A stretch of DNA of 64,000 bases from Candidatus Woesebacteria bacterium (GTDB taxonomy: Bacteria; Patescibacteriota; Microgenomatia; UBA12405): positions 177,548-241,547 of the forward strand of contig DAONDY010000001.1 in the NCBI GenBank assembly GCA_035402805.1, read 5' to 3'. Below the pieces are notes generated by a model. It had not been told where the DNA came from and searched no databases. It saw only the letters and a list, made by a program, of their open reading frames with translations. This document shows positions 7,888-44,737 of this stretch, in pieces (position 1 is the first letter of the stretch; the number at the start of each line of letters is the position of its first letter). The position numbers and the translations under genes are program-made.

Positions 7888-8352
7888 ATGAAGAATAAAT
7901 TATATAAATTTACATTGATTTATATAATTATATTTTATGTTTTAGCAACTATAGGTTTTGTCTTAATTAAAAACTACTATAAAAATAATTACAGTCAGGA
8001 AAAACTAGATATTTTATTAAATTCGAAATCTATCTGGGATAATTTAAGTGATAATCCTTGTAATGCCCAAATTTTTAGCAATCCAGTGTCTAACAAAGAA
8101 GGATCGATACAAATAAATCTTTACTGTTCTTCAGGTCAAAAAAGTTTAAATACTTTATCTTTAATCGCTTTAAAAGATAATAAAACATTAAAAAATGCTA
8201 TTCAGGAAATTGGTAAAATAAATGCTTTTAACCCAAAACAAATTTTTGAACTAAATAATAAATGGAATTGTCTTTTAAATAAAAATAAAATTTCTGATTT
8301 TAATATTTCTATTAGTAACGGGAATATTATAAATTGTTATCAAAATAAATGA
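7888..8352 (+). CDS. Hypothetical Cys-containing secreted/membrane-anchored protein
   Basis: 154 aa with an N-terminal TM helix and several Cys in the extracytoplasmic part. No motif recognised. Confidence 0.4.
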   Translation: MKNKLYKFTLIYIIIFYVLATIGFVLIKNYYKNNYSQEKLDILLNSKSIWDNLSDNPCNAQIFSNPVSNKEGSIQINLYCSSGQKSLNTLSLIALKDNKTLKNAIQEIGKINAFNPKQIFELNNKWNCLLNKNKISDFNISISNGNIINCYQNK

Positions 8353-9776
8353 TTAAATATCTAAAAATTTTATTTAAAACATTTTTTGTCATTTTAATTT
8401 TAATTATTTCCTTTAAATTAAGATACAAAAATTATGATCAAATTCCTGTTGTTGGGCAATCAGTTGATGAATACAGTAATTCTTGGGTTGGGTTGTCTTT
8501 AATAAAAATAGGTTACCCTGTCGGTATAACCAATATGAAAGGTTATAAAGCCGATGATTACCGATATGTTAACGTGGATCATATTTATCAAAAAGTTGAG
8601 GGAACTCCTTTTAATATGGGTAAACCATGGTTCGATCATCCTCCTCTTATTGGTTTATTAACTGGATCTTACGCCCATTTAAAAGGTGCTCAAGTTTTTG
8701 AGGATGTTCACTTGTTTTTGATTAGAAAACCAATGCTATATTTAGGAACTTTTTCTGTGTTATTGATTTTTTTAATCGGTTTAATAAATTTTAATTATTT
8801 TACCGGTCTAATTGCTGCCACTATCTACGGAACGACTCCTTTTGTAGTTTTTGCCAGTCGTATGGCTCAATCTGAAAATGGAGTAATTCCTATGTTTCTC
8901 TTGTCTTTATTGTTTTATTCTTTATTCAAAAAAAATAAACATTATTTTTATCTCTTTTTAAGTGCCATTTTTGCTGGATTATCAACTTTATTTAAAATAC
9001 CTGGAGTAGTTTCCATACTTTCAATTATATTTTTGATTTATTCTGATAATAAAAAACAACTTAAAAATCAACCAGCCAAGATTGAAGAAATAGTTTTTTT
9101 TAGCGCCATTGCTTTTTCAATAACCAGTTTATTCGCAATTTATGGTCTTGTTTACGATTGGACAACTTTTAAAAACATTTTTAATACTAATGCCAATCGA
9201 TACTATGGCATCGGACCTTATGCTGTTTTTCATTTATTAACTAAAAATAATATTACTAATGTTAAAAGTATGACCGATGCTTGGGTCATAACGTCTTGGA
9301 TATCGTTTTTTATTTTAATGTTTAGAAAAAAAAATAATTTTGGCGAAAAACTGATAACTGTTTCGACCTTAAGTTATTTAGCTATTTATCTTATTCTTGG
9401 CAGCGATCCATTCGGCTGGTATACCTTTCCTTTTTTACCATTTTTATCAATTGCTCTGGCTCGTGTTTTATATTTAGGTTTTAATAAAGCCAAATATATG
9501 ATTACCAATTTTATATTATTGCTAATCCCTCTCGGATTTAATCTCAGTCATTTTATAGATATTCCTTCGTTCCAAAAATACTCCAATATTTGGCGTTTTT
9601 CCATTGGTTTTTTCATTATTCTATTAATTTTCTTAAAATTAAGAAAATTTAGCCATCCTAAATTTATTAGCCTATTTATTAAACTAATACTTATTTTAAC
9701 CTTTGCTGTGGCTATTTATTTGAATATTAAATATGTTTTTTCAATTGACATTAGTAAATGGTACGGAATAACTTAA
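8349..9776 (+). CDS. Polytopic GT-C-type membrane glycosyltransferase (PMT/ArnT-like), paralog family D
   Basis: 475 aa with about 11 predicted TM helices. The acidic first-loop region is VDEYSNSWVGLS...KPWFDHPPL. It is a paralog of 32263..33756 (ELLYSWSGINLI...KPWLDEPPL). Confidence 0.6.
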   Translation: MIKYLKILFKTFFVILILIISFKLRYKNYDQIPVVGQSVDEYSNSWVGLSLIKIGYPVGITNMKGYKADDYRYVNVDHIYQKVEGTPFNMGKPWFDHPPLIGLLTGSYAHLKGAQVFEDVHLFLIRKPMLYLGTFSVLLIFLIGLINFNYFTGLIAATIYGTTPFVVFASRMAQSENGVIPMFLLSLLFYSLFKKNKHYFYLFLSAIFAGLSTLFKIPGVVSILSIIFLIYSDNKKQLKNQPAKIEEIVFFSAIAFSITSLFAIYGLVYDWTTFKNIFNTNANRYYGIGPYAVFHLLTKNNITNVKSMTDAWVITSWISFFILMFRKKNNFGEKLITVSTLSYLAIYLILGSDPFGWYTFPFLPFLSIALARVLYLGFNKAKYMITNFILLLIPLGFNLSHFIDIPSFQKYSNIWRFSIGFFIILLIFLKLRKFSHPKFISLFIKLILILTFAVAIYLNIKYVFSIDISKWYGIT

Positions 9777-10379: not shown

Positions 10380-11033
10380 ATGAAAATCGTCTTTGATCAA
10401 GTCGACAAAAATTTTGGGATAGTTAATGCTCTAAAAAATATTAATTTCGAAATAGATCAAGGAGAATTTGTTTTTATTACCGGTAATTCTGGTGCCGGTA
10501 AATCAACTTTATTAAAACTTATTTTAAACCAACTTAAACCTAGTTCGGGAAAAATTTTGCTTGGTGATATCGATCTCTCACTTGGTAATAAAGAAGATAT
10601 CAATCAAACCAGAAGAAAAATAGGAGTCGTTTTTCAGGATTATCAACTTATTCCAGATAAGACAATCGAAGAAAATATTGCCTTAATATTGGATATTGTT
10701 AATTATCCAAAAGAAAAAATTCAATCGCGAATAGATCAAGTTATTAAAGAAGTTAATCTTGGTACTCGCCGTTTTCTTTTCCCATCACAATTAGCTGGTG
10801 GCGAGCTTCAAAGGGCCGCTTTAGCTCGTGCTTTAGCTATTGAGCCAGAAGTTATTCTCGCCGATGAACCAACAGGTAATTTAGACCAGGAAAATTCATG
10901 GAACCTAATTAAACTTCTAAAAGAAATCAATCAAAAGAACAATACTACTATTATTATGACCACCCACAACAACGATATTGTTGATTCAATGGGTAAAAGA
11001 GTTATTAAACTTAAAGAAGGAGAAATTATATGA
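10380..11033 (+). CDS. ftsE: Cell division ATP-binding protein FtsE (ABC ATPase)
   Basis: Walker A GNSGAGKST, ABC signature LAGGELQR and Walker B ILADEPT. It is immediately followed by the ftsX permease. Confidence 0.85.
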   Translation: MKIVFDQVDKNFGIVNALKNINFEIDQGEFVFITGNSGAGKSTLLKLILNQLKPSSGKILLGDIDLSLGNKEDINQTRRKIGVVFQDYQLIPDKTIEENIALILDIVNYPKEKIQSRIDQVIKEVNLGTRRFLFPSQLAGGELQRAALARALAIEPEVILADEPTGNLDQENSWNLIKLLKEINQKNNTTIIMTTHNNDIVDSMGKRVIKLKEGEII

Positions 11034-11902
11034 GTCCATTAAAAACTACTTGGCATCACATCAGAAGATCGCCATTTCAAAGTTTAATCGCCCTTATTGT
11101 TATGGTTTTGAGTTTTTTCTTTATTTCTCTTTTTGCCATTATAAATTCCGGTCTTTCATCGGTCTTGAATTATTTTGAAACCAAACCAGAAATTACTTTA
11201 TTTCTAAAAGACGGTCTTGATAAGAGCACTGTTGAAAATATCCAAAAAGATTTATCTAGTTATCAAAGCATTAAAGAAATTACTTTCATTTCAAAAGAAA
11301 AAGCTCTTAGTATCTATAAAGAACAAAATAAAGGTAACCCTCTATTAACTGAAATGGTTACTGCTAGTATTTTACCAGCCTCTTTTGAAATTACCGTTTC
11401 TAACCCTCAGGTTTTAGAGCAGATTTATCAAAATTATTCCACTAAAACTAATGTTATTGATGAAATTATTTATCAGAAAGATATTATTCAGTCTTTACTG
11501 GATTGGACTAGTGCCACCAGAAAAATTGGCATTGCTATTATTTTAATAATTTCTTCAATTTCCTTTTTAACCATAATAACCATTATTGGTATGAAGATTA
11601 CTAACCGCAAGGATGAAATAAAAATTAGCCGACTTATCGGTGCCTCTAATTTTTATGTTAAAAAACCATTTTTATTAGAAGGAATTATTTACGGAGTTAT
11701 CGGTAGTATTTTGGGATTTATTTTTAGTTTTTTAATTGCTTTAGTTTCTCAAAAATCAATTAATTCCTTTTTCCAGCCAGTAGTTTTTATTGATTTGAAT
11801 GTCAATTTTTATTTAATTCTTTTAGTTGTTGAAATTTTAGTCGGAACTTTTTTAGGGTTTTTTGCTAGCTGGGTCGGTGTCAAAAGATATATTAAATATT
11901 AA
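11030..11902 (+). CDS. ftsX: Cell division permease FtsX
   Basis: 290 aa. N-terminal TM helix, a large extracytoplasmic loop, then three C-terminal TM helices. Its start overlaps ftsE by 4 nt. Confidence 0.8.
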   Translation: MSPLKTTWHHIRRSPFQSLIALIVMVLSFFFISLFAIINSGLSSVLNYFETKPEITLFLKDGLDKSTVENIQKDLSSYQSIKEITFISKEKALSIYKEQNKGNPLLTEMVTASILPASFEITVSNPQVLEQIYQNYSTKTNVIDEIIYQKDIIQSLLDWTSATRKIGIAIILIISSISFLTIITIIGMKITNRKDEIKISRLIGASNFYVKKPFLLEGIIYGVIGSILGFIFSFLIALVSQKSINSFFQPVVFIDLNVNFYLILLVVEILVGTFLGFFASWVGVKRYIKY

Positions 11903-11907
11903 ACTTA

Positions 11908-13128
11908 ATGTTTAAAAAAATTATTTTTTTATTTTTAGCTTTACCTTTTTTTTTATCTAAGATTTCCTCTTGCTATGCCACAGATCAAAGCGAATTAGAA
12001 AAGCAAATAGCTGAATATACTATAAAACTGGCAGAATTGGATAAGGCTAAAGATACTCTTTCAAATCAAATTAAAATTATTGATTCACAGGTTGAGTTAA
12101 CGCTTTTAAAAATTTCTCAAACAGAAAATTCGATTAAAAATCTCGAACAAGAGATTAATAATCTTACTGTAGAAATAGATAAGCTTAATAATCAATTGAA
12201 CGAGTTGTCATCAATTTACGTTCTTCAAATTATTCAGAATTACAAACTTCAAAAAAATATTCCACCTTTTACTTTTTTATTTTCATCGCGACTTAATAAT
12301 TTTTTAGAACAATATAAATACGTTTCAAGTATTCAAAAAGCCAGTCAAAACAGTTTAATTAATATGGAAACTGTTCGTAGCAATTACGATGCTCAAAAAA
12401 CTGCTAAAACCAAAAAACAACAGGAGATGGAAACTCTTCAAAAAACTTTAGCTTCCCAAAAAATTACCCTTAATAATCAAAAAATTGCCAAAAATAAACT
12501 CCTAGAAATTACCAAAAATGACGCCAAAGAATATGAAAGACGTCTATCAGACGCTGTTAATCAATTAAATTCTTTTAAAAGTTTTACCACCAGCAGTGGT
12601 GGAGCCACTCTTTTATCAGGACAAACTCGTTGCGATGATTGGGGTTGCTATTATAACCAACGAGACTCTCAATGGGGGAATATCGTCTTTGGATATAGTG
12701 ATGATAGAAATGGCAACAGAACATATTACGACATGAAAGGATACGGCTGTTTAATAACCTCTGTTACTATGGTTTTGAGACACTATGGTAAATCTGTTGA
12801 TCCTTCTAATTTATCAAAAGATTCGAGTTTATTTTATGGCCATTCTGGTGATATGTTACAAGGTGATCTGTCTACTAATGGAATTAACTTTAGTCGAACA
12901 GTTCTCGGCAGTAGATTGTCTTTAGCTGATTCTGAACTAAATTCTGGTCGACCTGTTATTGCTGGTGTTGGTGGATCTTACCGATATCCAGCTCATTTTA
13001 TCGTTATTAAATCAAAAAGAGATGGCCAATATATTATCAACGACCCCTATCCAGAAAATGGATCCGATAAAAAATTATCAGATACTAATTATGTTGTGGT
13101 TAGAATTGAATCTATAAAAGTCAAATAA
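11908..13128 (+). CDS. FtsEX-associated coiled-coil cell-wall hydrolase with a C-terminal C39-like/papain-fold cysteine peptidase domain (PcsB/EnvC analogue)
   Basis: Signal peptide, about 200 aa of heptad-rich coiled coil (LEKQIAEYTIKLAELDKAKDTLSNQIKIID...), then Q...GYGCLITSV...AHFIVIKS...NDPYP, which gives the Gln/Cys/His/Asp of a papain-like peptidase. The position directly after ftsEX matches the EnvC/PcsB operon logic. Confidence 0.6.
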   Translation: MFKKIIFLFLALPFFLSKISSCYATDQSELEKQIAEYTIKLAELDKAKDTLSNQIKIIDSQVELTLLKISQTENSIKNLEQEINNLTVEIDKLNNQLNELSSIYVLQIIQNYKLQKNIPPFTFLFSSRLNNFLEQYKYVSSIQKASQNSLINMETVRSNYDAQKTAKTKKQQEMETLQKTLASQKITLNNQKIAKNKLLEITKNDAKEYERRLSDAVNQLNSFKSFTTSSGGATLLSGQTRCDDWGCYYNQRDSQWGNIVFGYSDDRNGNRTYYDMKGYGCLITSVTMVLRHYGKSVDPSNLSKDSSLFYGHSGDMLQGDLSTNGINFSRTVLGSRLSLADSELNSGRPVIAGVGGSYRYPAHFIVIKSKRDGQYIINDPYPENGSDKKLSDTNYVVVRIESIKVK

Positions 13129-13175: not shown

Positions 13176-13796
13176 TTAGTAACCTCTAGCCTTTTTTCTG
13201 AAATAAATTCCAGATCCAGCTGTTAAAGTAACTAAAATTGTTTTTAATATAATATCTGAAGCACCAGTGGCTGGTACAGTGGTTTTGCCAATAAAATAAC
13301 TGGCATAATCTTGATCACAAGAACCACCACCACAAGATTCAACTTTATTAGTTTGTTTAGTTAAAGTACTAAGTTTATTAGTGTCGTTAATTTTAGCTCT
13401 GATCAAATATGTTTTACTTTCCCCAGCTTCTAATTTATCAATATTCCAGTCAACAATATATTGATCTTTATTAAAATTACCTGGATAAAAAATTAGAGTT
13501 AAATATTTAGGTAAAATATCTTCTGTTTTAATATTATAGACAACTTCGTCACTAATATTTTCAACTCTAATTTGAAATTCAACTACATCCTTTTCGTAAA
13601 AAGTTTTTCTAGAAGCTTCAATATTGTCGTAATATTTGGTATCACCGATAGATCTTATTTTTTTATCGATTGAAAGTTTAGCCTTTCCACCTTGGGAATA
13701 AGATTGACCGTAGGCCTTAAAAGGGCTGAATAGGGATAAAAACAATATCACTATTGCACTTAATCCAAAGCCAATTGATAGTTTTTTGTGTTTCAC
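13176..13796 (-). CDS. Secreted surface protein with a C-terminal LPXTG-like (VPATG) sorting signal
   Basis: N-terminal signal peptide. The C-terminus is TTVPATGASDIILKTILVTLTAGSGIYFRKKARGY, a motif-hydrophobic-basic tail arrangement like that of sortase substrates. Confidence 0.5.
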   Translation of the reverse strand: MKHKKLSIGFGLSAIVILFLSLFSPFKAYGQSYSQGGKAKLSIDKKIRSIGDTKYYDNIEASRKTFYEKDVVEFQIRVENISDEVVYNIKTEDILPKYLTLIFYPGNFNKDQYIVDWNIDKLEAGESKTYLIRAKINDTNKLSTLTKQTNKVESCGGGSCDQDYASYFIGKTTVPATGASDIILKTILVTLTAGSGIYFRKKARGY

Positions 13797-13906
13797 CTGC
13801 GTTATTAATAATTAATTATAGGCCATTATATTGCCAAAATGTCTATTTGTCAAGTAAAAACTCTTATAACTTGTTTTTTCTGCCTTTTTTGCTTTATACT
13901 TTACCT

Positions 13907-14635
13907 ATGAATAAATTTTTAATAAGTGAGCTTTCTGTCTTTTTCCCTTGTTATAACGAAGAGAAAAACATTCAAAATACTATCGATAAAACTATTCCTG
14001 TTCTTAAAAAAATAGCCCAAAAATGGGAAATTATTCTAATTAATGATGGTTCAAAAGACAATACCGGCCAAGTTTTAGAAGAAATTAAAAAAGATTACCC
14101 AGAACAAATAAAAATAATTACCCATAATCCCAATCGTGGCTATGGTGCTGCACTTAAAAGTGGTCTTTATAATTCCAAATATCAATGGATTGCTTTTACC
14201 GATTCTGATGGTCAATTTGATTTTTCCGAAATTACCAAGTTTATCGAAAAACAGCAAAAAACCAATGCTGATATTATTATTGGCTACTATCTTGCCCGTC
14301 AAGTTTCTAAAGCCGCCATCATTACCTCTAAAATTTGGGAGGTAATTGTTTTCATTCTTTTTGGTCTTCATGTCACCGACATTGATTGTGGTTTTAAACT
14401 AATCAATAAAAAAGTCGTTGATACCATTCCTAAACTAGAAGCTGAAAGGGGAGCCTTTATCAGCAGTGAATTCCTTATTAAATCTAAAAAAGCTGGTTTT
14501 AAAATCAGTGAAATAGGTGTTCATCATTATCCTCGAATTGAAGGTAAAGCTACCGGTCGAAATATTAAAGTTATTATTAAAAGCTTTTCCGATTTATTTA
14601 AGCTTTGGTTTAAAATTAATTTTCATCGTGCTTAA
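13907..14635 (+). CDS. GT2 polyprenol-phosphate sugar synthase (DPM1/GtrB-like)
   Basis: LSVFFPCYNEEKNIQ...ILINDGSKDNT...FTDSDGQFD matches the DPM1-like GT2 core. The ATG at 13907 was chosen because the TTG/ATG-extended ORF from 13754 would overlap the convergent upstream gene. A plausible promoter is TTGTTT-N17-TATACT at 13864-13893. Confidence 0.75.
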   Translation: MNKFLISELSVFFPCYNEEKNIQNTIDKTIPVLKKIAQKWEIILINDGSKDNTGQVLEEIKKDYPEQIKIITHNPNRGYGAALKSGLYNSKYQWIAFTDSDGQFDFSEITKFIEKQQKTNADIIIGYYLARQVSKAAIITSKIWEVIVFILFGLHVTDIDCGFKLINKKVVDTIPKLEAERGAFISSEFLIKSKKAGFKISEIGVHHYPRIEGKATGRNIKVIIKSFSDLFKLWFKINFHRA

Positions 14636-16112
14636 AAAATTTCTCAAAAAATATTGGGTTTTGGTATTAATTTTATTGTTGGCTTCTTTTTTACGTCTCT
14701 ATCGGCTTTCTGACTACATGGAATTTCTAGGTGATCAAGGTCGAGATGTGACAATTATTAAAGATTTCCTTAAAAACGGTAATCTATTTTTTATTGGCCC
14801 TCAAACCAGTATTGGTAATATGTATCTTGGCCCTTTTTTTTACTATTTAATTGCTCCATCATTGCTTTTATCAGCCTACAATCCGGTTGGTCCAGCTGTT
14901 TTTATTGCCATTCTTAGCGTTGCCACTGTCGCCCTAATTTTCTTTATAGGTAAAAAATGGTTTAACTTAAAAACTGCCTATATAGCTTCATTTTTATATG
15001 CTATTTCCCCAGTAGTTATTAAATATTCCAACTTTATTTGGAATCCGAATGTTATGCCGTTTTTTAGTCTTTTATTTGTTTATTTTTTCTTTGAAAGTTT
15101 TCGATCCAAAAAATTTCATTACTTTATCTATGCTTCTCTAGCTTTTGTAATGGTGATGAATAGTCATTATCTTGGCTTGGCTCTTTTGCCTTTTACCGGC
15201 TATTTTTGGCTTTATAGTTTAATTAAATTTATTAGATCAAAATCATCAGAGTTAAAACCATTCATAAAGTACACCTTACTTGCGGCTTTAATTTTTATTA
15301 TTTCTCTAACCCCTCAAATTCTTTTTGATATTAAGCATAATGGTCAAAACGTCAAAGCTCTTTTAAATTTTTTCACTTATCGCGAAACCACTGTCAATAT
15401 TAAGCCATACAAAGCCATTCCGGAAATGCCCGCCATTTTTAATCAAATTAATACTAATCTATTGGCCGGCAAAGAATCAAATACTACCGGTGGAATAATA
15501 ATTAGTATTACTTTTGCCCTTTTAATTTTATTTACCCTATTTAAATTTAAAAAACAAAAATCAACTTATTGGATTGTTTTTATTTGGTATTTATCAGGTA
15601 TTGCCGCTTTAGCTCTCTATAAACAACATATCTATCCGCATTATTTTGCCTTTCTTTTCCCTCCAATCTTTATTCTCATTGCTTTTCTAATCCAAAAATT
15701 TAAGTTCATAGGCGTTCCTCTTTTTGCTCTAATAACCTTTTTTTGTTTAAAAGAAATTCCTTTTCGTTGGCAACCAAATTATCAGCTAAAAACGACTATT
15801 AAAATAGCCGACTTAATCATTTCTAATTCAGATAATAAAGATTTTAATTTTGCCTTACTTGCCAAGCAAAACTATGATCCAACTTATAGATATATATTAG
15901 ACGAAAAAGAAGCAAAAATAGTAAATTTACCGGAAAAAATGGCTGAACAACTATTTGTAGTTTGTGAGCCTTTTCAAATTGATTGTAATCCTATTAATAA
16001 CCCTGAATGGTCTGTTGCCGCCTTTGGTTGGGCAAAAATAGATAATCAATGGGAAATAAATGGAATTAAAATTTTTAAAGTAATTCATAATCCAGATGGT
16101 AAAAAAGAATAA
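14628..16112 (+). CDS. Polytopic GT-C-type membrane glycosyltransferase (PMT/ArnT-like), paralog family C
   Basis: The N-terminus FLRLYRLSDYMEFLGDQGRDV aligns with the 16096 paralog (FLRFYRQGDLLGFYYDQGRDA). About 12 TM helices. A GTG start at 14628 is proposed. The GTG-extended ORF from 14517 would overlap the upstream GT2 gene by 119 nt. Confidence 0.55.
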   Translation: MLKKFLKKYWVLVLILLLASFLRLYRLSDYMEFLGDQGRDVTIIKDFLKNGNLFFIGPQTSIGNMYLGPFFYYLIAPSLLLSAYNPVGPAVFIAILSVATVALIFFIGKKWFNLKTAYIASFLYAISPVVIKYSNFIWNPNVMPFFSLLFVYFFFESFRSKKFHYFIYASLAFVMVMNSHYLGLALLPFTGYFWLYSLIKFIRSKSSELKPFIKYTLLAALIFIISLTPQILFDIKHNGQNVKALLNFFTYRETTVNIKPYKAIPEMPAIFNQINTNLLAGKESNTTGGIIISITFALLILFTLFKFKKQKSTYWIVFIWYLSGIAALALYKQHIYPHYFAFLFPPIFILIAFLIQKFKFIGVPLFALITFFCLKEIPFRWQPNYQLKTTIKIADLIISNSDNKDFNFALLAKQNYDPTYRYILDEKEAKIVNLPEKMAEQLFVVCEPFQIDCNPINNPEWSVAAFGWAKIDNQWEINGIKIFKVIHNPDGKKE

Positions 16113-31375: not shown

Positions 31376-31376
31376 T

Positions 31377-32255
31377 ATGAAAATATCAGTCATTATTACC
31401 AATTGGAACGGATTAAATTTACTTAAAAAAAATTTAGAGCAGGTAATAAAAATGAGTCCAGAGGCTGAAGAAATCATTGTCGCCGACGATGCCTCCAGTG
31501 ATAAAAGTGTTGAATATATTAAAAGTCTGCAAAAAAAATATTCCAAATTAAAAATAATTGCTAATAAAAAAAATCTTGGGTTTGGTAGAAACTCCAATAA
31601 TGCAGTTGCTAAAAGTAAAGGTGATTTAGTTGTTTTACTAAATAGCGATATCTTCCCTTATAAAAATTACATTAAAAATTCATTAAGTCATTTTAATAAT
31701 CAACTAGTTTTGGGAGTTAGTTTTGCTGAAGAGGAACATCAAAATTGGGCTAGAATTTATTGGAAAAGTGGTTATCTTCAACATGAAGCCGGAATAACTC
31801 ATATTGACAAAACCCATATAACTGCTTGGTTATCCGGGGGTAGTTCTATTGTTCGTAAAGAAATTTTTCAAAAACTCGGAGGTTTCGACAACGTTTACGC
31901 TCCCTTTTATAGCGAAGATTTAGATTTAGGATATCGAGCCTGGAAATCTGGTTACGTTCTTTTTTGGGAACCTAAATCTATCGTTAGTCATCGACATGAA
32001 TCAACAATTTCAAAATTTTCCAAGGGACTTTTAAACTATGTTAAAGAAAGAAATCGTTTATTAAATGTTTGGCGAAATATCACCGATCCTGAAATGTTAT
32101 TTTCAAATAAAGTTACTTTAATCGGCCGTGTTTTATCTGGACCAAACTATATAAAGATAATTAAAGCCGCTAGAAAACAAGTTAAAATTTCTTCACCACC
32201 GATTGTCTTTCCAAAGCTTACTGATAAAGAAATATTTGAAAAATTCAAATTCTAA
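31377..32255 (+). CDS. GT2 glycosyltransferase
   Basis: ISVIITNWNGLNLLKKNLEQV...IVADDASSDKS...LLNSD. Confidence 0.7.
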   Translation: MKISVIITNWNGLNLLKKNLEQVIKMSPEAEEIIVADDASSDKSVEYIKSLQKKYSKLKIIANKKNLGFGRNSNNAVAKSKGDLVVLLNSDIFPYKNYIKNSLSHFNNQLVLGVSFAEEEHQNWARIYWKSGYLQHEAGITHIDKTHITAWLSGGSSIVRKEIFQKLGGFDNVYAPFYSEDLDLGYRAWKSGYVLFWEPKSIVSHRHESTISKFSKGLLNYVKERNRLLNVWRNITDPEMLFSNKVTLIGRVLSGPNYIKIIKAARKQVKISSPPIVFPKLTDKEIFEKFKF

Positions 32256-33756: not shown

Positions 33757-35381
33757 TTCTTTTTATAAAATATTAAAAATATACAACCAATTATAGTTAA
33801 AATCGACAAATAATCTAACACTTTATTTATTATTGTTTCTCTATATTGAACTAATATTTCATGATTACCACTAGGTATAGTAAGTTGAATCTGGCCATAT
33901 GGATCTCCACTTTTTATTGGTAATTTATTTCCATCAATATAGGCTTTCCAACCGGGAAAATTATATTTATTGTAATTTAAAATAATTTCAACATCAGACG
34001 TCGTGTTAAACTTTGCATCCAAACTATTGATTAACACCACATTTTTAACTGCGTTATTAATTGGATATATTCTTGGATAAATTTCTTTTGGTCTAGTAAT
34101 ACTTGTCTTTGGTAATCTAAGATATTCTTCTTGCAGCGTTAAATATTCTTGGCTTGGATTTGGAATTGGTATATAACGATTAATATAATAACTATCATCT
34201 CTGTTTAGATAATCCTTTGGCTTAAAACGACCTATGTTTAAGACCATAGAAACTACAATAATTAAAACCGCAATAACTTTTGAATATTTAAATTTTTTAA
34301 TAAAAATAACCAATAAGGATGAAGCAAAAACTATCATTGTTAAAAATCTCCATGGAAACTGAAAATAAGCAATCAAAGGAATTTTTTCCCAAAGCCAAAA
34401 TGATCGAAAATTCATCATTAATATCGAAGAAAAAATCAAAAATAAACTCCAACCTAATATTAATTTATCTCTTAAGATAATTTTGGAAAAATTAAAAATA
34501 GCAAAAATTATAATTGCAATAATAATTATTAAGTTTATTTCTCCGATAAAAAAAGACATTTCATCATATGGCCCAGGAACTGAAGCACCGTAACCCCAAA
34601 AGGGAGTTATTAATTGTTTAATAGTAGGAAAATGATCAAAAAAATTAAAAACGGTCTCATATTTCATTAATTTACTATCTAATAATGCTGGCAACCAAAA
34701 ATAGATACTTCCTAACAATCCATTAAAAAATAATAAAAACATATTTTTTAAATTTCTTCTCAAAACAAAAATTCCAAATAAAAAAGCAAATGGAATAAAC
34801 ATATAGGAAACTATATTGTGGGTTAAAATTAATCCAGCCACAGACAATGACCCAGCACAAATCCATTTAACACTCTCTTTAGTGTTCTTCGATTCTGATA
34901 AATTTATTAAAAATAGGATAATTAATGGTGAAAAAATAAAAGCCAAAGATTCTCCTAAAGCACCTCTACTATAAATATCTGTTGAACGATATGGAGTATA
35001 GGTATAAAGTACTGCTGCTGCCATTCCTATAAACTTCCCCGATAATTTTTTTGCTAAAAAATACATTGTCAATGCCGATGCAAATAAACTAAAAATAAAG
35101 ACAGCTTTAATACTGTAAGTAAAACTTAATCCAACTAAATGGAAAATTTCTCCTAAATAATAAGGTAACGGAAAAATGAAATTAAATAGGGGATATCCAA
35201 ACCCAAAACTCAAATCAGACACATATCTTGGTGGTATTTGCCCTTCTTTTATTGACTGATCAATCTGTTGTAACCAAGCAATATGCATATCGTCAGATGC
35301 TCCAAAAAACCCTGGTTTAAACAAAGACAAAGTTGCTGGTATTACTAATAAAATTAGTATCAATAATTCCTTAATTTTCAT
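33753..35381 (-). CDS. Large polytopic membrane protein, paralog family B
   Basis: 542 aa, MKIKELLILILLVIPATLSLFKPG...QIPPRYVSDLSFGFGYPLFNF. It overlaps its neighbours by 4 nt and 11 nt. Confidence 0.6.
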   Translation of the reverse strand: MKIKELLILILLVIPATLSLFKPGFFGASDDMHIAWLQQIDQSIKEGQIPPRYVSDLSFGFGYPLFNFIFPLPYYLGEIFHLVGLSFTYSIKAVFIFSLFASALTMYFLAKKLSGKFIGMAAAVLYTYTPYRSTDIYSRGALGESLAFIFSPLIILFLINLSESKNTKESVKWICAGSLSVAGLILTHNIVSYMFIPFAFLFGIFVLRRNLKNMFLLFFNGLLGSIYFWLPALLDSKLMKYETVFNFFDHFPTIKQLITPFWGYGASVPGPYDEMSFFIGEINLIIIIAIIIFAIFNFSKIILRDKLILGWSLFLIFSSILMMNFRSFWLWEKIPLIAYFQFPWRFLTMIVFASSLLVIFIKKFKYSKVIAVLIIVVSMVLNIGRFKPKDYLNRDDSYYINRYIPIPNPSQEYLTLQEEYLRLPKTSITRPKEIYPRIYPINNAVKNVVLINSLDAKFNTTSDVEIILNYNKYNFPGWKAYIDGNKLPIKSGDPYGQIQLTIPSGNHEILVQYRETIINKVLDYLSILTIIGCIFLIFYKKK

Positions 35382-37053
35382 AAAAATTTTTCTTTTTAAT
35401 AACCATAAATATTGGCAAACTTATTAAGGTAATTAAGCTTATTAAATCCCCAATTTTTCTTGGTGTTGTAGATTTTAGTTTAACAGTAATTTTATGTGTA
35501 CCTTTATTTAAATTAAAACTAATTTGGCCAAAACAATAATCCTGATTACTGCAATCATTATGATTAAAAACTATTGGTAAATTATTATCCGTCACTTCCA
35601 TCCCTGGAAAGTCAAATATCGGCAATCTGATCTCAGCCACCTCACTGTCAACATCTATTTCTCCTGTTTGATAGTTACTTCCTTTTTTATAATTTTTAAC
35701 TTCCGCTTTTCCCTTTGTAATTTCTGGTATTTCTGGTGCTTTATAGTTTGGCGGTAAGACAGAACTTTTTGGTAAATAATCAAAAATACTTGCCGTTTGT
35801 TGTTTTAAAAATTCTTGGTCATTTAATAGTTGCTGGTCATTAATATTCATCCATTTTTGTGGTTTGAAAAAACTTCCATATAAAAGGAATAATGATAATC
35901 CAACTATTATTACAATAATAGTTTGTCGCTTACCATTAAAAAAATTTATTGCATAACCAGACAGTAAAGATAAAAGAAAAGTACTAATAACCAAAAATCT
36001 CCAAGGAAATTGGAACATTGCCATAAAACTAAATTTATCCCAAATAAAAGATGATCTTTGATGAATTAAAAAAATAACAAACAAGCTAAGTCCAGCCAAA
36101 ACAAAAACGATTAAACTACTTTTTTTAGATTTTTTATAATTTTTTATTGCCAAAAACAAAGCCGTTAACCCTAACACCCATTGTATTTGTCCTACCGATA
36201 AAGATAAATCATCACCCGCCCCTAAATAAGATGATCCGTATCCAAAACGATTCGATATAAATAATTGATATAAATTTACAAAATGTTGACGATAATCAAA
36301 ATAACCGCCAATCATACTTTCTAGATGGATATAACCTCTTTCAAATATTAAAGGCACAATAAAAAAAGAAGCTAAACCAATTCCTATTAAAAAAGCCCAA
36401 AAGAAATCGACCAATTTTTTTATTTTTCTCTCTTGTATTAATAAAACAACTATCCATACTCCCAGTATTGGGAAAAAGGCTAACGACATTAAATTATGTG
36501 TCACTAATAAACTGAAAACGGCTAAACCTAACCATAAAATATTATTTTTACCTATACCTTTAATAATTCGATAGGAGAATAAAAACAACCAAGGAAAAAC
36601 TGCCATCGATAAAAATTCTCCCAAAGATCCTCTTACATAAACTTGCACTGCTCTAACTGGTGCGTATATATATAATAGTGATCCAATAAAAGCTACTTTT
36701 TGATTAGAAAATAAACTAGACAATAACAAAAACATTCCTATCGCTGATACTAAAAAACCACCTATAAATAATATTTTTACTGAATCTATATATTGAAAAC
36801 CAATATTATGAAAAAGAGTTCCTAAATAATAAGGGCCAGGAGAATAATATAAAAACAAAGGATATCCAAAGCCATAACCCATATCTGGCACCCAACGACA
36901 TGGTATTTGTCTATCATCAAAACATTTTTGCATTTCATAAATTCGAAAATATTGCATGTTGTCCTGAATATTGTGAATTCCTGGTCGCAAAAGAGTTACA
37001 AAAGCCGGAACTGTAAACAAAATCAAAGCCAATAACCAAATATAGCGTTTCAT
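35371..37053 (-). CDS. Large polytopic membrane protein, paralog family B
   Basis: The start at 37053 (MKRYIWLLALILFTVPAFVTLLRPG) was chosen because it aligns with the paralog N-termini. It leaves an 80-nt divergent intergenic region. The track's 37113 start is a TTG. Confidence 0.6.
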   Translation of the reverse strand: MKRYIWLLALILFTVPAFVTLLRPGIHNIQDNMQYFRIYEMQKCFDDRQIPCRWVPDMGYGFGYPLFLYYSPGPYYLGTLFHNIGFQYIDSVKILFIGGFLVSAIGMFLLLSSLFSNQKVAFIGSLLYIYAPVRAVQVYVRGSLGEFLSMAVFPWLFLFSYRIIKGIGKNNILWLGLAVFSLLVTHNLMSLAFFPILGVWIVVLLIQERKIKKLVDFFWAFLIGIGLASFFIVPLIFERGYIHLESMIGGYFDYRQHFVNLYQLFISNRFGYGSSYLGAGDDLSLSVGQIQWVLGLTALFLAIKNYKKSKKSSLIVFVLAGLSLFVIFLIHQRSSFIWDKFSFMAMFQFPWRFLVISTFLLSLLSGYAINFFNGKRQTIIVIIVGLSLFLLYGSFFKPQKWMNINDQQLLNDQEFLKQQTASIFDYLPKSSVLPPNYKAPEIPEITKGKAEVKNYKKGSNYQTGEIDVDSEVAEIRLPIFDFPGMEVTDNNLPIVFNHNDCSNQDYCFGQISFNLNKGTHKITVKLKSTTPRKIGDLISLITLISLPIFMVIKKKNFYEN

Positions 37054-37132
37054 CTTAACTATTATAGCCCAATTAATTTCCAATTTAACTCTATTTTTCA
37101 TATAATCATTCAAGTGTTAACATTATACAAAC

Positions 37133-38794
37133 ATGACTAAACTTTATTCAATTATTTTTGGAATTATTTTAGTCATCGGATTCCTAACCCGTTTTCTTTT
37201 TCTAGATAAATTTCCAGTCAGTCTAAATTGGGATGAAATCAGTCACGGATATAACGCTTATAGTCTTGTAAAAACTGGTCGAGATCAATGGTCAAAATCA
37301 CTACCTATTTTTAATTTTAGGGCTTACGGTGACTATCCAACCACTCTCAACATGTATCTTTCTGCCCCTCTTATTTATTTTTTTGGCTTAAATGAATGGA
37401 CTACTAGGATTATTTCTGCACTTTGTGGTTTTGGTTTAGTTATTGTTTCTTATTTTTTGGGTAAAGAATTATTTAAAAATCAAAAAGGTAAATATTTATT
37501 AATGTTATTAGTAGCCGTTTCACCCTGGACATTTTTCACCTCAAGAGCAGTTTTTCAATCAACAGTGGCTCAATTTTTTCTTTCTCTGGGAATTTTGTTT
37601 TTAATTAAAGCTACTAAAAAAATAAATTTTCTATTGCCGGGAATATTTTTTACTTCAATTTCTACTTATGCCTATCATAACACTAAAATAATTGTTCCAA
37701 TTTTATTTTTAATCTACATTATCATCTTTTTTAAAGAAATAAAACTAAACTTTTCTAAAAAAATAAAAACATTTTTGATTGGCTTTTTATTAATTTCAGT
37801 TTTAATAATTCCTCAGATAATTAATGTTTTTAATAAAGATGCTCAAGCTCGCAGTCGTTGGGTTTTTGCTATTAATCCAGTCACTGTTAATCAAATTGAA
37901 ATTAATCGCAATAATTACAAAGGTAATCCCTTAATTGCCAAATTAAAATATAACCGAGTCACTGTCTTTTCGGCTATTGTCGCTAAAAATTATCTTGGAT
38001 TTGTAAACCCGAAAATGTTGTTTTTTGATAGCACCCAAAATTTCCAATTTAACATTCCTAAAACCGGCGTTCTTTATTCTGTTTGTCTGCCTTTCTTTTA
38101 TATCGGTCTAGTAGTTTTATTAATAAATTTTTTCAAAAAAGACAAGTTGTCTATTTTCCTTATTTTTTGGTTTTTAATTGGTTTAATCCCTGCCGTTATC
38201 ACTATCGGTGATTTCCCAATCATTAGGGCTATGACTATTTTGCCATTACCTCAAATTTTTATAGTTTATGGGTTTTTAAGAACAATAAATTTATTCAAAA
38301 ATCAAAAAGTAAAATCCCTTTTTACTATTTTATTTTTATTAATTTTATTTATTCAAACCTCCTTTTATTTGAAAAATTACTTTAATGATTATTCAAAAAA
38401 ATATTCTTCTTCTTGGCAATACGGTTATAAACAAGTTGTTGAGTATATAAAAAATAATTACCAAGATTACGATCAAATCATTTTCACTAAAAAATATGGA
38501 GAAGCCCACGAATTTGTTTTGTTTTATTGGCCATGGGATCCAAAATCTTATCAAAATGACCCTAATTTAAATTGGGATTTTCACTCTGATTGGTATTGGG
38601 TTAATGCTTTTGATAAATTTAAATTTATCAACGATTGGGAAATTCAAAAAGAAACTCAAAAAATAGACAAAAAAACTCTTTTAATAACTTCTCCAAATAA
38701 TTATAATAAAGACAATACTACATTAATTAAAACCATCTATTTTTTAAATCAAACACCAGCTTTTGACATTTTAACCATCAATGATCAAAAATAA
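37133..38794 (+). CDS. GT-C glycosyltransferase family 39-like (PMT/ArnT) membrane protein, paralog family A, copy 1
   Basis: First-loop DE motif NWDEISHGYNAYSLVKTGRDQW...YGDYPTTLNMYL, about 12 TM helices and a C-terminal soluble domain. Confidence 0.65.
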   Translation: MTKLYSIIFGIILVIGFLTRFLFLDKFPVSLNWDEISHGYNAYSLVKTGRDQWSKSLPIFNFRAYGDYPTTLNMYLSAPLIYFFGLNEWTTRIISALCGFGLVIVSYFLGKELFKNQKGKYLLMLLVAVSPWTFFTSRAVFQSTVAQFFLSLGILFLIKATKKINFLLPGIFFTSISTYAYHNTKIIVPILFLIYIIIFFKEIKLNFSKKIKTFLIGFLLISVLIIPQIINVFNKDAQARSRWVFAINPVTVNQIEINRNNYKGNPLIAKLKYNRVTVFSAIVAKNYLGFVNPKMLFFDSTQNFQFNIPKTGVLYSVCLPFFYIGLVVLLINFFKKDKLSIFLIFWFLIGLIPAVITIGDFPIIRAMTILPLPQIFIVYGFLRTINLFKNQKVKSLFTILFLLILFIQTSFYLKNYFNDYSKKYSSSWQYGYKQVVEYIKNNYQDYDQIIFTKKYGEAHEFVLFYWPWDPKSYQNDPNLNWDFHSDWYWVNAFDKFKFINDWEIQKETQKIDKKTLLITSPNNYNKDNTTLIKTIYFLNQTPAFDILTINDQK

Positions 38795-40421
38795 CAAATT
38801 ATTTTTAATAATTATTTTCCTTATTTCCTTCCTTATTAGGTTTTATAAAGTAGGGGAATATCCGACATTACTCTGGGATGAAGCCGCTATTGGTTATAAT
38901 GCCTTTTCACTAGTCGAAACAGGTAAAGACGAATACGGTGAAACTCTACCAATTATTTTTAAGTCTTTTGGAGACTATAAGCCGGGTTTTTATATTTATT
39001 TAGCCGCTCCATTTATTAAAATATTTGGACTAAACGCTACTGCCACCAGGTTACCTTCCGTTATTTTAGGTTCTTTTTTGCCAATTTTAATTTATTTTTT
39101 AATTAAGGAAATAAATCAAAAAGCTCATAAAACAGCCGTTATTGCCGCTATTATCACTGTTTTTAATCCATATTCAATTCATTTTTCTCGTGGCGCTTGG
39201 GAAAGTAACGTTTTGACTTTTGAATTAGTTTTAGCTTCCTTTCTTTTCTTTAAATATATTAATAAAAAATTAAATAAATATTTACTACTTTCAGCCATTG
39301 TTTTTGGCCTGACTCTTTTTACCTATCAAGCCGGTAAAATGATTAGCCTCCTTTTAATTACTATTTTATTTTTAACAAACTTAAATATTGTTAATTTTAA
39401 AAATATTAAAAATATATTATTAAACTTTATTCTTCCTCTTTTTCTTTTTTCTCTGCCAATAATTTATGGTTTATTATTTTCCAATAACGCTAATCGACTA
39501 AAAGTTGTTAGTCTTTTTTCTTATCCTCGAACAACTCAAGAATCAGAGGCTATTAAAAGTGAAAGTAATCAGCTTGATTATGATATTTTTCATAATCAAT
39601 TAGTTTTTTTTGGACGTAATTTTTTACTTCGTTATTTCAATCATTTTTCACCGCGATTTTTAGCTTTTGAGGGTGATTGGCAAAGTCCACGTCACGGAGC
39701 TCCTTATATTGGAGTCATCCTTTATCCTAGCCTTATTTTTTTAATTATCGGTGTCTTTTTTGCTTTAAGTCGGCCCAAAATTGATAAATTAAATATTTTC
39801 TTTTTCCTCTGGCTTATTGTTGCCCCATTACCGTCAGCTTTAACTCGAGACATTGTTCAATCATTAAGATCGATGTCCTTTTCTATTCCTTTAATATATT
39901 TTATTTCCGTTGGTATTTATATTGTTTTATTAAAATATAAAAATATATTTGTTTATTCTTTAATTATTGGTTCTTATTTGATTTCTTTCTTTTACTACGT
40001 CGATCTTTATTTAAATCATATGGTCAAAAAAAACCCAGACGAATTTCTTTATGGATATCAACAATCAATGGATTATTTAATTAAAAATCAAAGTAAATAT
40101 AAACAAATAACTGTCAGTGATTATTATGGTCAAGCTTATATTTTTTATCTTTTTTATTCGAAATATCCACCTCAAAAGTATCAACAGCAAGCCAAATTAA
40201 TAGAAAATTTGTCTGGTGATACTGGCAAAGTTGAACAAATTGATAATATAAAATTTACTACCCCAGATTACAGTGTAATAAAAAATCAACCATCTTCTCT
40301 CGCCATTTTCAATTATAATGAAATTTATCGTCAGTTAATTGATAAATCGGATTATTTTAAAGAATTTATACCTTTAAGTCTTATAAATAATATTTCCACT
40401 TTCTATGCCTACCAAAATTAA
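38781..40421 (+). CDS. GT39-like (PMT/ArnT) membrane glycosyltransferase, family A copy 2
   Basis: WDEAAIGYNAFSLVETGKDEYG...FGDYKPGFYIYL. It overlaps copy 1 by 14 nt. Confidence 0.65.
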   Translation: MIKNNKLFLIIIFLISFLIRFYKVGEYPTLLWDEAAIGYNAFSLVETGKDEYGETLPIIFKSFGDYKPGFYIYLAAPFIKIFGLNATATRLPSVILGSFLPILIYFLIKEINQKAHKTAVIAAIITVFNPYSIHFSRGAWESNVLTFELVLASFLFFKYINKKLNKYLLLSAIVFGLTLFTYQAGKMISLLLITILFLTNLNIVNFKNIKNILLNFILPLFLFSLPIIYGLLFSNNANRLKVVSLFSYPRTTQESEAIKSESNQLDYDIFHNQLVFFGRNFLLRYFNHFSPRFLAFEGDWQSPRHGAPYIGVILYPSLIFLIIGVFFALSRPKIDKLNIFFFLWLIVAPLPSALTRDIVQSLRSMSFSIPLIYFISVGIYIVLLKYKNIFVYSLIIGSYLISFFYYVDLYLNHMVKKNPDEFLYGYQQSMDYLIKNQSKYKQITVSDYYGQAYIFYLFYSKYPPQKYQQQAKLIENLSGDTGKVEQIDNIKFTTPDYSVIKNQPSSLAIFNYNEIYRQLIDKSDYFKEFIPLSLINNISTFYAYQN

Positions 40422-42027
40422 TAAACTACCGCTAATAATAATTCTCCTCGTTGCCTTTTTAGTTAGATTTATCAACCTTAACAATGCTCCTGCTTTAAAT
40501 CCTGACGAAGCCGCTCTCGGTTACAATGCTTATTCCCTAATTAAAACTGGAAAAGACGAACACGGTATTTCTTGGCCACTCCATTTTAAATCTTTTGGCG
40601 ATTTTAAACCTGGTGGTTATGTTTATTTAGCCATCCCATTCGTAAAATTTTTCGGTCTCACACCATTGGCCACCAGAATGCCGAATTTGATTCTTTCCTT
40701 ATTCACTATCCTTTTTTTATATAAATTAATTTTACTTTTATCAAAATCTAATGGTTTAGCCCTCTTAAGTGCCGCCGTATTATCTTTATCACCTTGGCAT
40801 ATTCATTTTAGTCGTGGTGCTTGGGAATCCTCAGCCGCCCTTTCTTTTGTTGTCATCGGCACTTATTTCTTTTTTAAATCAATCGAAGAAAAGTTTTTAT
40901 TAAATTTTAGTTTTTTTGTTGTTCTCTATGTGTTATCCCTCTATATTTATCACTCATCTCGTCTAGTTGCTCCGCTTTTAGCCCTCACTTTAGTTATTTT
41001 ATATTTTAAAAATCTAATTCAAAAAATTCCCAAAATATTTATCCCCATAGCTCTAGGTGTCGTCTTAGCACTACCGGTAGCTTTTTCATTCTTAAATAAT
41101 GGAGGAACAGCTCGTATTGGTGGAGTTGGGTTAACTGCCGACCAAGGGCCGCTTTGGCGAGCCAATGAATTGATAAATCACCACGGTAACACTAAGTTGA
41201 TTAACCGGATAACGCACAACAAAAGAATTCTTTATTTGATTTCTTGGGGTCAAAAATACACCTCACATTTTGACTTAAACTTTTTAAGTATTAATGGCGA
41301 TGAAGTGCCTCGTTCCAAAGTCCCAGAAATGGGTCAAATTCATCTAATAGAACTTCCTTTTCTAATCCTTGGTCTTGTTTTCCTTTTTAAATCCAAAATT
41401 TATAACTTAAGATCTAAAATTTTTATTATTGCCTTTTTATTAATCGCTCCAATTGCCTCATCTTTAACTTTTCAAGCCCCTTCGGCTCTCAGATCTCTTT
41501 TTATGGTTATTCCATTTTCCATTCTAATTGCCTTAGGCATTTTTTCTTTTTTTAATCTCCTTACTAAATCAAAATTTAAAAAAATAATTTTAACAATATT
41601 TATTATTATCTATAGTTATTTTATTGCTTATTATCTTGACTCTTATTTTATCCATTATTTCAAAAGATATCCTTTTGCCTGGCAATATGGTTTTGATCAG
41701 TTAGTTCCTTATCTGGAACAACAAAAAGCTAATTATGATCAAGTTTATGTCACCAATAAATATGATCAGCCATACATTCTTTTTCTTTTTTATTCAAAGT
41801 ATTCACCAGTTAAAATTCAGTCTGAAATAAAACTCACTCAGCCGGATAATTTTGGTTTTTCTACTGTTTTAAATTTTGACAAATATAATTTTCAAAAAAT
41901 TGATTGGGATAAAATCCCCAAAAATTCACTAGTAGTAGCCAGTGATGAAATTGTTCCCATTGAACCTATTAAAATTATTAATTTCCAAAATGGTCAACCA
42001 GGGTTTAAAATCTACTCAAAGCTATGA
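40405..42027 (+). CDS. GT39-like (PMT/ArnT) membrane glycosyltransferase, family A copy 3
   Basis: NPDEAALGYNAYSLIKTGKDEHG...FGDFKPGGYVYL. It overlaps copy 2 by 17 nt. Confidence 0.65.
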   Translation: MPTKINKLPLIIILLVAFLVRFINLNNAPALNPDEAALGYNAYSLIKTGKDEHGISWPLHFKSFGDFKPGGYVYLAIPFVKFFGLTPLATRMPNLILSLFTILFLYKLILLLSKSNGLALLSAAVLSLSPWHIHFSRGAWESSAALSFVVIGTYFFFKSIEEKFLLNFSFFVVLYVLSLYIYHSSRLVAPLLALTLVILYFKNLIQKIPKIFIPIALGVVLALPVAFSFLNNGGTARIGGVGLTADQGPLWRANELINHHGNTKLINRITHNKRILYLISWGQKYTSHFDLNFLSINGDEVPRSKVPEMGQIHLIELPFLILGLVFLFKSKIYNLRSKIFIIAFLLIAPIASSLTFQAPSALRSLFMVIPFSILIALGIFSFFNLLTKSKFKKIILTIFIIIYSYFIAYYLDSYFIHYFKRYPFAWQYGFDQLVPYLEQQKANYDQVYVTNKYDQPYILFLFYSKYSPVKIQSEIKLTQPDNFGFSTVLNFDKYNFQKIDWDKIPKNSLVVASDEIVPIEPIKIINFQNGQPGFKIYSKL

Positions 42028-44735: not shown

Positions 44736-44737
44736 TT

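Follow-up and report, generated by a model that had tools for sequence, protein, structure and literature searches.

A dense and diverse array of GT-C-type glycosyltransferase genes in a probable cell-envelope glycan assembly island of a Microgenomatia bacterium

A 64,000-nucleotide stretch of a Candidatus Woesebacteria genome (contig DAONDY010000001.1, positions 177,548 to 241,547), hereafter the window, carries an array of genes for multi-spanning membrane glycosyltransferases of the GT-C type. Positions given below are those of the window, and + or - denotes the strand. The window has a GC content of about 30% and is densely coded. A hydropathy scan revealed 15 open reading frames (ORFs) of 412-580 amino acids (aa) with many hydrophobic segments in the interval 8349-42027, where an earlier note on this DNA had described at least 15 GT-C genes of 410-580 aa. 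The ORFs and their sizes were as described, but the count needs adjustment: one of the 15, at 24400-25854, encodes a Wzx-type flippase, the other 14 are GT-C genes, and a fifteenth GT-C gene, in which a transmembrane (TM) domain is joined to TPR repeats, lies outside the interval at 60578-62323. The array itself is confirmed, and GT-C genes, taken as maximal ORFs, make up 65.5% of the interval. Assignment to GT-C was borne out for all 15 genes of the window by Pfam, profile-profile or fold evidence. The number of TM helices, previously put at 11-13 per protein, came out slightly lower in a crude, coarse hydropathy scan, at 7-12 segments.

The 15 genes were sorted by BLASTP into families A to D, within which paralogues share 28-36% identity, and the singletons E, GT87-like, oligosaccharyltransferase (OST)-like and TPR. 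Classification against Pfam, a check that had been proposed in the earlier note, placed PMT_2 (PF13231, gathering score 26.1 bits) and/or PMT (PF02366, 22.7 bits) at or above the gathering score in eight genes, and gave sub-threshold matches to GT-C-clan models in five others. The eight comprise families A, B and D. Family A consists of 8349-9776 (+; first-loop motif VDEYSNSW, PMT_2 39.6 bits) and A2 at 32263-33756 (-; HAEELLYSW, PMT_2 38 bits), which are 29% identical. Family B consists of B1 at 14517-16112 (+; GDQGRD, PMT_2 34.8 bits), B2 at 16096-17601 (+; FYYDQGRDA, PMT_2 37.2 bits, 29-33% identical to B1) and B3 at 17605-19101 (-; GHDQDLYSW, PMT_2 31.7 bits, BLASTP to B1 and B2 about 4e-19). 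The PMT/GT39-like family D is represented by D1 at 37133-38794 (+; WDEISHGYNAYSL, PMT 24.5 and PMT_2 27.9 bits), D2 at 38781-40421 (+; WDEAAIGYNAF, PMT 47.5 and PMT_2 41.5 bits) and D3 at 40405-42027 (+; PDEAALGYNAY, PMT 26.8 bits). PMT_2 reaches its gathering score in all of these except D3, while PMT does so in family D only; in the other families, the Pfam scan reported no PMT match besides a sub-threshold one in B1 (18.3 bits).

The five genes with sub-threshold matches are those of families C, E and GT87-like. Family C (PTPS_related/PMT_2-like) comprises C1 at 22703-24427 (+; (H/Q)DD, PMT_2 24.9 bits, 36% identical to C3), C2 at 33753-35381 (-; SDDMH, PTPS_related 23.5 bits, BLASTP to C1 and C3 1e-53 to 1e-70) and C3 at 35371-37113 (-; QDNMQ, PTPS_related 24.1 bits, BLASTP to C1 3e-105). 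The family E gene lies at 19827-21467 (+; CDEAIYIRW, PMT_2 23.3 bits), and the GT87/PIG-V-like gene at 21472-22710 (+; HPD) gave 20.1 bits with GT87 (PF09594, gathering score 25 bits). For many orthologues of the latter, at 45-77% identity, the precomputed domain assignments include PF09594 and/or PF06728. A role of this gene as a Wzy polymerase was considered and rejected, given the lack of a Wzy_C/O-antigen-polymerase Pfam signal and the GT87-like annotation of the orthologues.

Relationships between the families were examined by profile-profile comparison. Shallow alignments with two to three paralogues per family gave only 69-93% in hhalign, and the comparison was therefore repeated with family alignments enriched with orthologues from 80 related loci (see later). 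This linked A with B (98%), A with D (98.2%), B with D (99.8%), D with E (99.6%), C with D (98.1%) and B with C (97.7%), and the OST-like family with D (92.9% over 481 columns). The GT87-like family matched the other GT-C families weakly (38-54%), and the Wzx flippase, included as a negative control, always remained below 2%. Profile searches of the PDB with two paralogue alignments (A1 and A4) returned nothing useful.

The fifteenth GT-C (60578-62323, -; VSDDYA) has a PMT-like domain of 10 TM segments followed by C-terminal TPR repeats. Pfam detected the TPR repeats, and the TM domain had no match to any model. A Foldseek search with the whole predicted structure was swamped by TPR matches and uninformative on the TM domain, so that this domain was aligned locally with hhalign, using a 66-sequence alignment, and matched family D at 96.9% (E 1.5e-10). 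Some of its orthologues have been named protein O-mannosyl-transferase by JGI. The combination of a PMT-like TM domain, an invariant DD(Y) loop and C-terminal TPR repeats resembles that of eukaryotic TMTC and bacterial PMT_2-TPR proteins, but differs from them in that no Pfam model covers the TM domain, and the kinship comes from the profile-profile comparison only. A YvcK/CofD-related protein (UDP-GlcNAc-binding family, 1.4e-45) is encoded next to this gene, at 62360-63343 (-).

All four first-loop motifs quoted in the earlier note (VDEYSNSW, FYYDQGRDA, CDEAIYIRW and WDEISHGYNAYSL) were found, at aa 33-63 and directly after the first TM segment (TM1). Acidic residues at this position are near-invariant in all 8 families, with 14-83 sequences aligned for each and orthologues drawn from up to 80 species. 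Family A has [DE]E in 14/14 sequences, family D has DE in 30/30, and DEAIY is present in all 61 sequences of family E. In family B the motif is DQxRD (D in 77/83 and Q in 72/83), in family C it is HDD (D in 78/80), and in the GT87-like family it is HPD, with both H and D in 21/21. The OST-like family has HDxxWH (H and D in 67 of the 68 sequences), and in the TPR family the residues S61, D62, D63 and Y64 are invariant in 66 sequences. Conservation of the motifs in orthologues had been named as a test of the GT-C reading, which stands, since they are essentially invariant. The N-termini ahead of TM1 are rich in lysine, and by the positive-inside rule the first loop would therefore lie outside the cell. 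A cytoplasmic N-terminus also agrees with fusions, described below, in which a GT2 domain precedes the GT-C module.

Related loci were gathered by scanning one genome per species with the OST-like gene, and the best 80 of 250 matching stretches were used; locus statistics refer to the 41 loci in which the full 10 kb on either side of this gene was available. Homologues and related loci carry the names Candidatus Shapirobacteria or Microgenomates, in keeping with the earlier suggestion of a genome of the candidate phyla radiation (CPR) type. Identical copies of the BipA gene in the window occur on a 370-kb contig of the metagenome-assembled genome GCA_964497985.1 and on a JGI metagenome contig. 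With gt2a and gt2b denoting the small GT2 genes at 13907 and 19163, the conserved order is (DUF11, divergent) - gt2a - B - gt2b - E - (GT87-like) - C - Wzx - OST-like - GT2 - GT2 - GT2 - GT4 - GT2, and at least 41 species-level genomes share this core. The five cytoplasmic glycosyltransferases (GTs) downstream of the OST-like gene (27541-32255, +; assigned by Pfam to the Leloir families GT2, GT2, GT2, GT4 and GT2) were found in 38-41 of the 41 loci in the same order, and C1 also belongs to the core (38/41). Per stretch of about 21.7 kb, the 41 loci have a median of 6 GT-C genes (range 3-9). The equivalent part of the window has 9, at the top of the range, and its extra copies (two B, two C, two A and three D) sit in the less conserved arms. 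The locus also occurs, at 40-73% identity, in many third-party metagenome-assembled genome records labelled 'uncultured Gammaproteobacteria bacterium' and in one labelled 'Clostridia bacterium' (L007, L010, L014-L020 and others); these labels look like placeholders or misassignments.

A recent duplication of the paralogues was rejected: they are at most 36% identical to each other, whereas orthologues in other species reach identities of 50-90%. The array therefore consists of ancient, divergent families and shows no recent amplification, so that the 'extreme expansion' of the earlier note applies to the many copies, which are arranged around a lineage-conserved core, and not to any recent burst. 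It could be argued that the investment in glycosylation is nevertheless overstated, many of the paralogues being degenerate, regulatory or scaffold proteins, like PIG-U in the glycosylphosphatidylinositol transamidase, or transporters. Several Pfam matches do lie below the gathering scores, and non-catalytic GT-C folds of the PIG-U type are among the structural matches of the OST-like model. However, the acidic residues of the first loop hardly vary between species in any of the families, the paralogues predate the sampled species and have been kept in synteny, and the profile comparison with Wzx, the sole genuine transporter of the locus, was negative. In view of the motif conservation, widespread inactivity is regarded as very improbable.

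Three small soluble GT2 enzymes are encoded in or beside the array: gt2a (13907-14635, +; PF00535, 1e-30), gt2b (19163-19927, +; PF00535, 8e-26) and a third gene at 43932-44735 (+). They cluster together and apart from the 8 other GT2s of the window (11 in total). The top PDB matches of gt2a are ArnC (6.6e-16) and GtrB (7e-14; the sll0501 structure), with DPMS (the Pyrococcus structure) also near the top; those of gt2b are DPMS (5mlz, 1.7e-14) and GtrB (5e-13), with ArnC likewise near the top. The third enzyme gave weaker matches, with DPMS first (6e-10) and chondroitin synthase second, above GtrB and ArnC. A control GT2 from the window (31377) matched chondroitin synthase and ppGalNAc-transferases and none of ArnC, GtrB or DPMS. 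Among NCBIfam equivalogs, PgfS was the best match of gt2b, the third of the 43932 enzyme and the fourth of gt2a, all NCBIfam scores of the small GT2s being far below the cut-offs; for this reason no specific orthology is claimed. By their closest characterized relatives, gt2a and gt2b are supported as GT2s of the polyprenyl-phosphate glycosyltransferase type, and the 43932 enzyme less strongly so. The earlier description of three DPM1/GtrB-like GT2s beside the GT-Cs thus agrees with the PDB matches and the separate cluster, although a conserved pairing with a GT-C applies to just two of them.

These partnerships are close. In 57 of 61 cases gt2b is followed by a family E GT-C gene, with a median overlap of 26 nucleotides (nt), and in 36 of 41 cases a family B gene follows gt2a; in these pairs the stop codon of the GT2 gene overlaps the start of the GT-C gene. 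Two species have gt2a and B as one continuous ORF of 727-731 aa (L005, 321-2516; L082, 1-2184), a Rosetta-stone case which argues that the pair works together. The fusion is also compatible with a GT2 domain that sits in the cytoplasm, ahead of TM1 of the GT-C; in these species the GT-C supplies the GT2 with a membrane anchor. In the window, the starts of the longest ORFs (TTG or GTG) add the segments 13754-13906, 14517-14630 and 19827-19904, and so overlap the upstream genes by at least 100 nt. The true starts are likely ATG 13907 for gt2a, TTG 14631 for B1 and an ATG at about 19905-19914 for the family E gene, which would leave short stop/start overlaps typical of translational coupling.

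The Wzx-type flippase noticed earlier at 24400-25854 (+) was confirmed as a member of the MOP superfamily (Polysacc_synt_3, 7.8e-45, with a second Polysacc_synt-type match at 7.7e-24, and 11 hydrophobic segments). In 41 of 41 full-length loci its gene lies immediately upstream of the OST-like gene, which in the window is found at 25833-27521 (+). The protein encoded by the latter has no sequence-family assignment: no Pfam or NCBIfam model matched, STT3 (PF02516) included, and a 66-sequence profile of the family found no OST in the PDB at E values up to 10 and no link to any solved protein. A confident AlphaFold2 model (pLDDT 90.5, pTM 0.91) was more informative. In a Foldseek search of the PDB, STT3 came first (1.6e-8), AglB gave 1.6e-6 and PglB 3.6e-5, and DPY19, AftA and ArnT were among the matches below STT3. 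The scores of STT3, PglB and AglB equal or exceed those of the Aft enzymes, and the matches specifically include the OST-type C-terminal domain. The predicted structure is thus that of a GT-C_A membrane module with an OST-type (AglB-like) C-terminal globular domain. A Wzy polymerase was considered here as well and rejected on account of this fold and the lack of a Wzy_C/O-antigen-polymerase Pfam signal.

The OST-like family, whose best 120 of 968 matches show 49-84% identity, is far more strongly conserved than the remaining GT-C families, and clustering at 50% identity gives 1597 representatives of it. Its invariant residues are H45, D46, W49 and H50, and there is a motif YETT(A/S)YVSA at 469-477. 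The conserved sites H45 and D46 in the first loop, E157 in the second outer loop and D286 in the long loop (270-300) form a pattern that is reminiscent of the D/D/E constellation of OSTs. Many representatives from outside the Shapirobacteria core (P0361, P0368, P0378, P0383, P0405 and others) have a signal anchor and a conserved extracytoplasmic domain of about 430 aa ahead of the OST-like module. This domain matched no Pfam family or PDB sequence, only DUF3863 weakly (3e-4). In one of these proteins (P0405, 1639 aa), Wzx, the domain of about 430 aa and the OST-like module are joined in one chain.

Taken together, the gene identities, folds, conserved motifs, synteny and fusions make it likely that the region is the core of an island for assembly of a cell-envelope glycan (or glycoprotein), with two lipid-linked routes running in parallel; what follows on sugar donors, lipid flipping, the acceptor and the sequence of steps is inference. 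In the first route, the five cytoplasmic GT2/GT4 enzymes would build an oligosaccharide on undecaprenyl-(pyro)phosphate, Wzx would flip it to the outer face, and the OST-like GT-C would transfer it to an acceptor or polymerize it there. In the second, gt2a, gt2b and probably the 43932 enzyme would use nucleotide sugars to charge polyprenyl phosphate with a single sugar on the cytoplasmic side of the membrane. The resulting lipid-monosaccharides would then cross to the outer face, perhaps also by way of Wzx, a role that has been proposed for GacK, and there each PMT_2-, PMT-, GT87- or PTPS-like GT-C paralogue would attach one sugar either to the glycan under construction or to surface proteins. 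The use of polyprenyl-phosphate-linked donors on the outer face is suggested by the adjacent or fused DPMS/GtrB/ArnC-like GT2s, and the first-loop Asp or Glu may serve as catalytic base or metal ligand in each GT-C. The diversity of the paralogues may reflect different linkages or acceptors. Finally, an LCP (LytR-CpsA-Psr) protein, also noted previously (6833-7882, +; PF03816, 5.8e-21) and a candidate ligase, might anchor the polymer to peptidoglycan.

Several observations weigh against this reading. The window contains no recognizable initiating phosphoglycosyltransferase (WecA/MraY-type or WbaP-type), Wzy-type polymerase or WaaL-type enzyme. A GtrA-type flippase was also not found, there being no GtrA-like ORF with 3-4 TM segments and no PF04138 match among the scanned window ORFs of at least 115 aa. 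No TM segment was found in the three small GT2s when read from their ATG starts, and they thus lack the helices that GtrB and ArnC have at the C-terminus. The WWDYG (WWDxG) motif is absent in 68 of 68 OST-like family members, and with no STT3 Pfam signal either, en-bloc transfer by the OST-like protein can be put forward only as an analogy.

Multi-component glycosylation systems, in which a sugar linked to undecaprenyl phosphate (C55-P) by a GT-A enzyme is carried outward by a flippase and joined to a polymer there by a GT-C, are well described (PMC8035078, extended in PMC11127046) and provide the closest comparison (GtrB/GtrA/GtrC, CsbB/GtcA/YfhO, GtlA/GtcA/GtlB and GacI-GacJ/GacK/GacL). The island shares with them a GT2 resembling polyprenyl-phosphate-sugar synthases that adjoins a multi-spanning GT-C with an acidic first-loop motif, and, like the GtlB system, it includes GT-Cs of the PMT_2 type. 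The variant GacI/GacK/GacL has a soluble GT-A and a Wzx-type flippase (PMC8035078, PMC11127046), and both features recur in the island. The only flippase found in the window is of the Wzx type, and the existence of this variant allows that a single Wzx serves both routes. The island differs from these systems in having 15 GT-C genes of at least 7 families, compared with one to three genes, and in lacking a recognized GtrA-type flippase; nor was a GacJ/DPM3-like membrane partner for the small GT2s recognized in the window. It also differs in that two GT2-GT-C pairs, one of them sometimes fused, belong to the core gene set throughout a CPR lineage.

A second comparison is with mycobacteria, which likewise have many divergent GT-Cs (GT39-like and GT87-like) fed by polyprenyl-phosphate-sugar synthases, as well as an LCP ligase. 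Their genes are scattered over at least 4 Mb, whereas those of the island lie within about 54 kb of what is inferred to be a sub-megabase genome, and the island has no enzymes of Emb or AftD size and no sign of arabinan or mannan chemistry. An alternative is a mycobacteria-like lipoglycan or wall polysaccharide that is built wholly on the outer face by successive GT-Cs, in the manner of PimE, MptA, MptB, Aft and Emb with Ppm1; Wzx would then flip polyprenyl-phosphate sugars in a GacK-like manner, and the OST-like protein would be one more elongating GT-C. We hold this to be a less probable account. The number and diversity of the GT-C families, including a GT87-like one, match the logic of Corynebacteriales, and the GT2-GT-C fusions recall Ppm1 of M. 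tuberculosis, which has a fused two-domain organization. Moreover, Wzx-type flippases for C55-P-sugars have been proposed (PMC8035078). On the other hand, the conserved block of Wzx, OST-like protein and five Leloir GTs is more typical of a pathway based on undecaprenyl-pyrophosphate (Und-PP) oligosaccharide, and the structural comparison described above, with STT3, PglB and AglB scoring no lower than the Aft enzymes and the OST-type C-terminal domain specifically matched, does not suggest a simple elongating enzyme.

Protein glycosylation provides another explanation. In streptococci, the GT2 PgfS and its GT-C partners O-glycosylate disordered regions of membrane proteins (PMC11092751), and by analogy the array could be mainly a machine for protein O-glycosylation, or more broadly for O-/N-glycosylation, in which the PMT/PMT_2-like paralogues modify secreted or surface proteins using polyprenyl-phosphate sugars and the OST-like enzyme adds a Wzx-flipped oligosaccharide en bloc to protein. 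Pilins, S-layer proteins, Ser/Thr-rich regions and the DUF11 protein described below would be candidate acceptors. Consistent with such a role, family D passes the gathering score of PMT (GT39) and has an invariant DE, the fifteenth GT-C has a TMTC-like TPR domain, the OST-like fold and C-terminal domain resemble those of protein OSTs, the small GT2s have PgfS among their NCBIfam matches, and a secreted DUF11 protein is a conserved neighbor. Against it, no acceptor protein was identified, the WWDYG motif is absent, and the LCP protein points to a wall-linked polymer; in addition, PMT_2 enzymes such as ArnT and GtlB have lipids and teichoic acids, and not just proteins, among their acceptors (PMC8035078). 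This explanation is therefore treated as possible, while the two-route envelope glycan island is preferred. Both it and the mycobacteria-like scheme differ from the preferred reading in the acceptor, the chemistry being the same, and the three are inseparable from sequence data.

Each component of the island belongs to a known kind of enzyme. What is unusual is the density and diversity of GT-Cs in a CPR genome, the lineage-wide core with fused GT2-GT-C, and an unclassified OST-like family coupled to Wzx. One could speculate further that the OST-like proteins are a new, CPR-centered family of enzymes that transfer a Wzx-flipped Und-PP-oligosaccharide en bloc to protein or wall without WWDYG, and that, together with the two GT2-GT-C pairs, they define an envelope glycoconjugate specific to Microgenomates. 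This is a tentative proposal, but if true, such a glycoconjugate would have a central part in the surface construction of these ultrasmall episymbiotic cells and in the interactions which that surface mediates. A literature search for GT-C, GT39 or mannosyltransferases in CPR, Patescibacteria or Microgenomates found no relevant paper, within a limited set of searchable full texts.

The genomes of CPR bacteria (Patescibacteria) are minimal, and a life in attachment to other cells is assumed for them; their surface chemistry is therefore probably central to their biology; to our knowledge it is almost unstudied. A paper on Saccharibacteria terms their glycosylation 'unexplored' (PMC11623550). 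About 48 kb of the present genome is given to glycan assembly, including 15 GT-C genes, which at its inferred size is probably several percent of the total. For glycomics of the envelope, structural studies and heterologous expression the locus supplies concrete targets, and the block of Wzx, OST-like gene and five GTs offers a genomic marker for tracing envelope type across the CPR.

Two small proteins encoded near the GT-C genes could be accessory subunits or acceptors. One is a single-TM protein of 154 aa (7888-8352, +) with no Pfam match, whose gene neighbors the family A GT-C at 8349; this pair was seen in several related loci and in 5/41 of the full-length ones. The other is the secreted or anchored DUF11-domain protein (13176-13796, -; PF01345, 2.8e-11), which is divergent from gt2a and its conserved neighbor in 16 of the 41 full-length loci. 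A role of the DUF11 protein as a surface acceptor is speculative.

The region 42024-60565 (+) forms a variable arm of the island that, by Pfam and NCBIfam, carries GT2/GT4s, sugar enzymes and radical SAM proteins, and includes the third small GT2 described above. Directly after the latter is a membrane GT2 (44738-45718, +) with an interrupted Glycos_transf_2 match, three C-terminal hydrophobic segments and similarity to Glyco_trans_2_3 and MftF, which may be a membrane-embedded synthase. Five genes for B12-binding (class B) radical SAM proteins (45642, 51417, 54961, 56427 and 57986) and one for a SPASM radical SAM protein (52821) are interleaved in 45642-59422 with GT2/GT4 genes and two NDP-sugar dehydratase/epimerase genes. 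Their best NCBIfam likenesses (HpnJ, BchE and P- and C-methyltransferases) are all far below the cut-off. The arrangement suggests an unusual radical-based (methyl) modification of sugars, in an organism that is unlikely to make cobalamin.

Elsewhere in the window, at 10380-13128, genes for FtsE and FtsX precede one for a secreted coiled-coil protein that has a C39_2-like peptidase domain. Such a set of genes is similar to FtsEX-PcsB/CwlO and, by that analogy, points to a wall hydrolase under control of the divisome. A second C39_2-like protein is encoded at 3570-4328.

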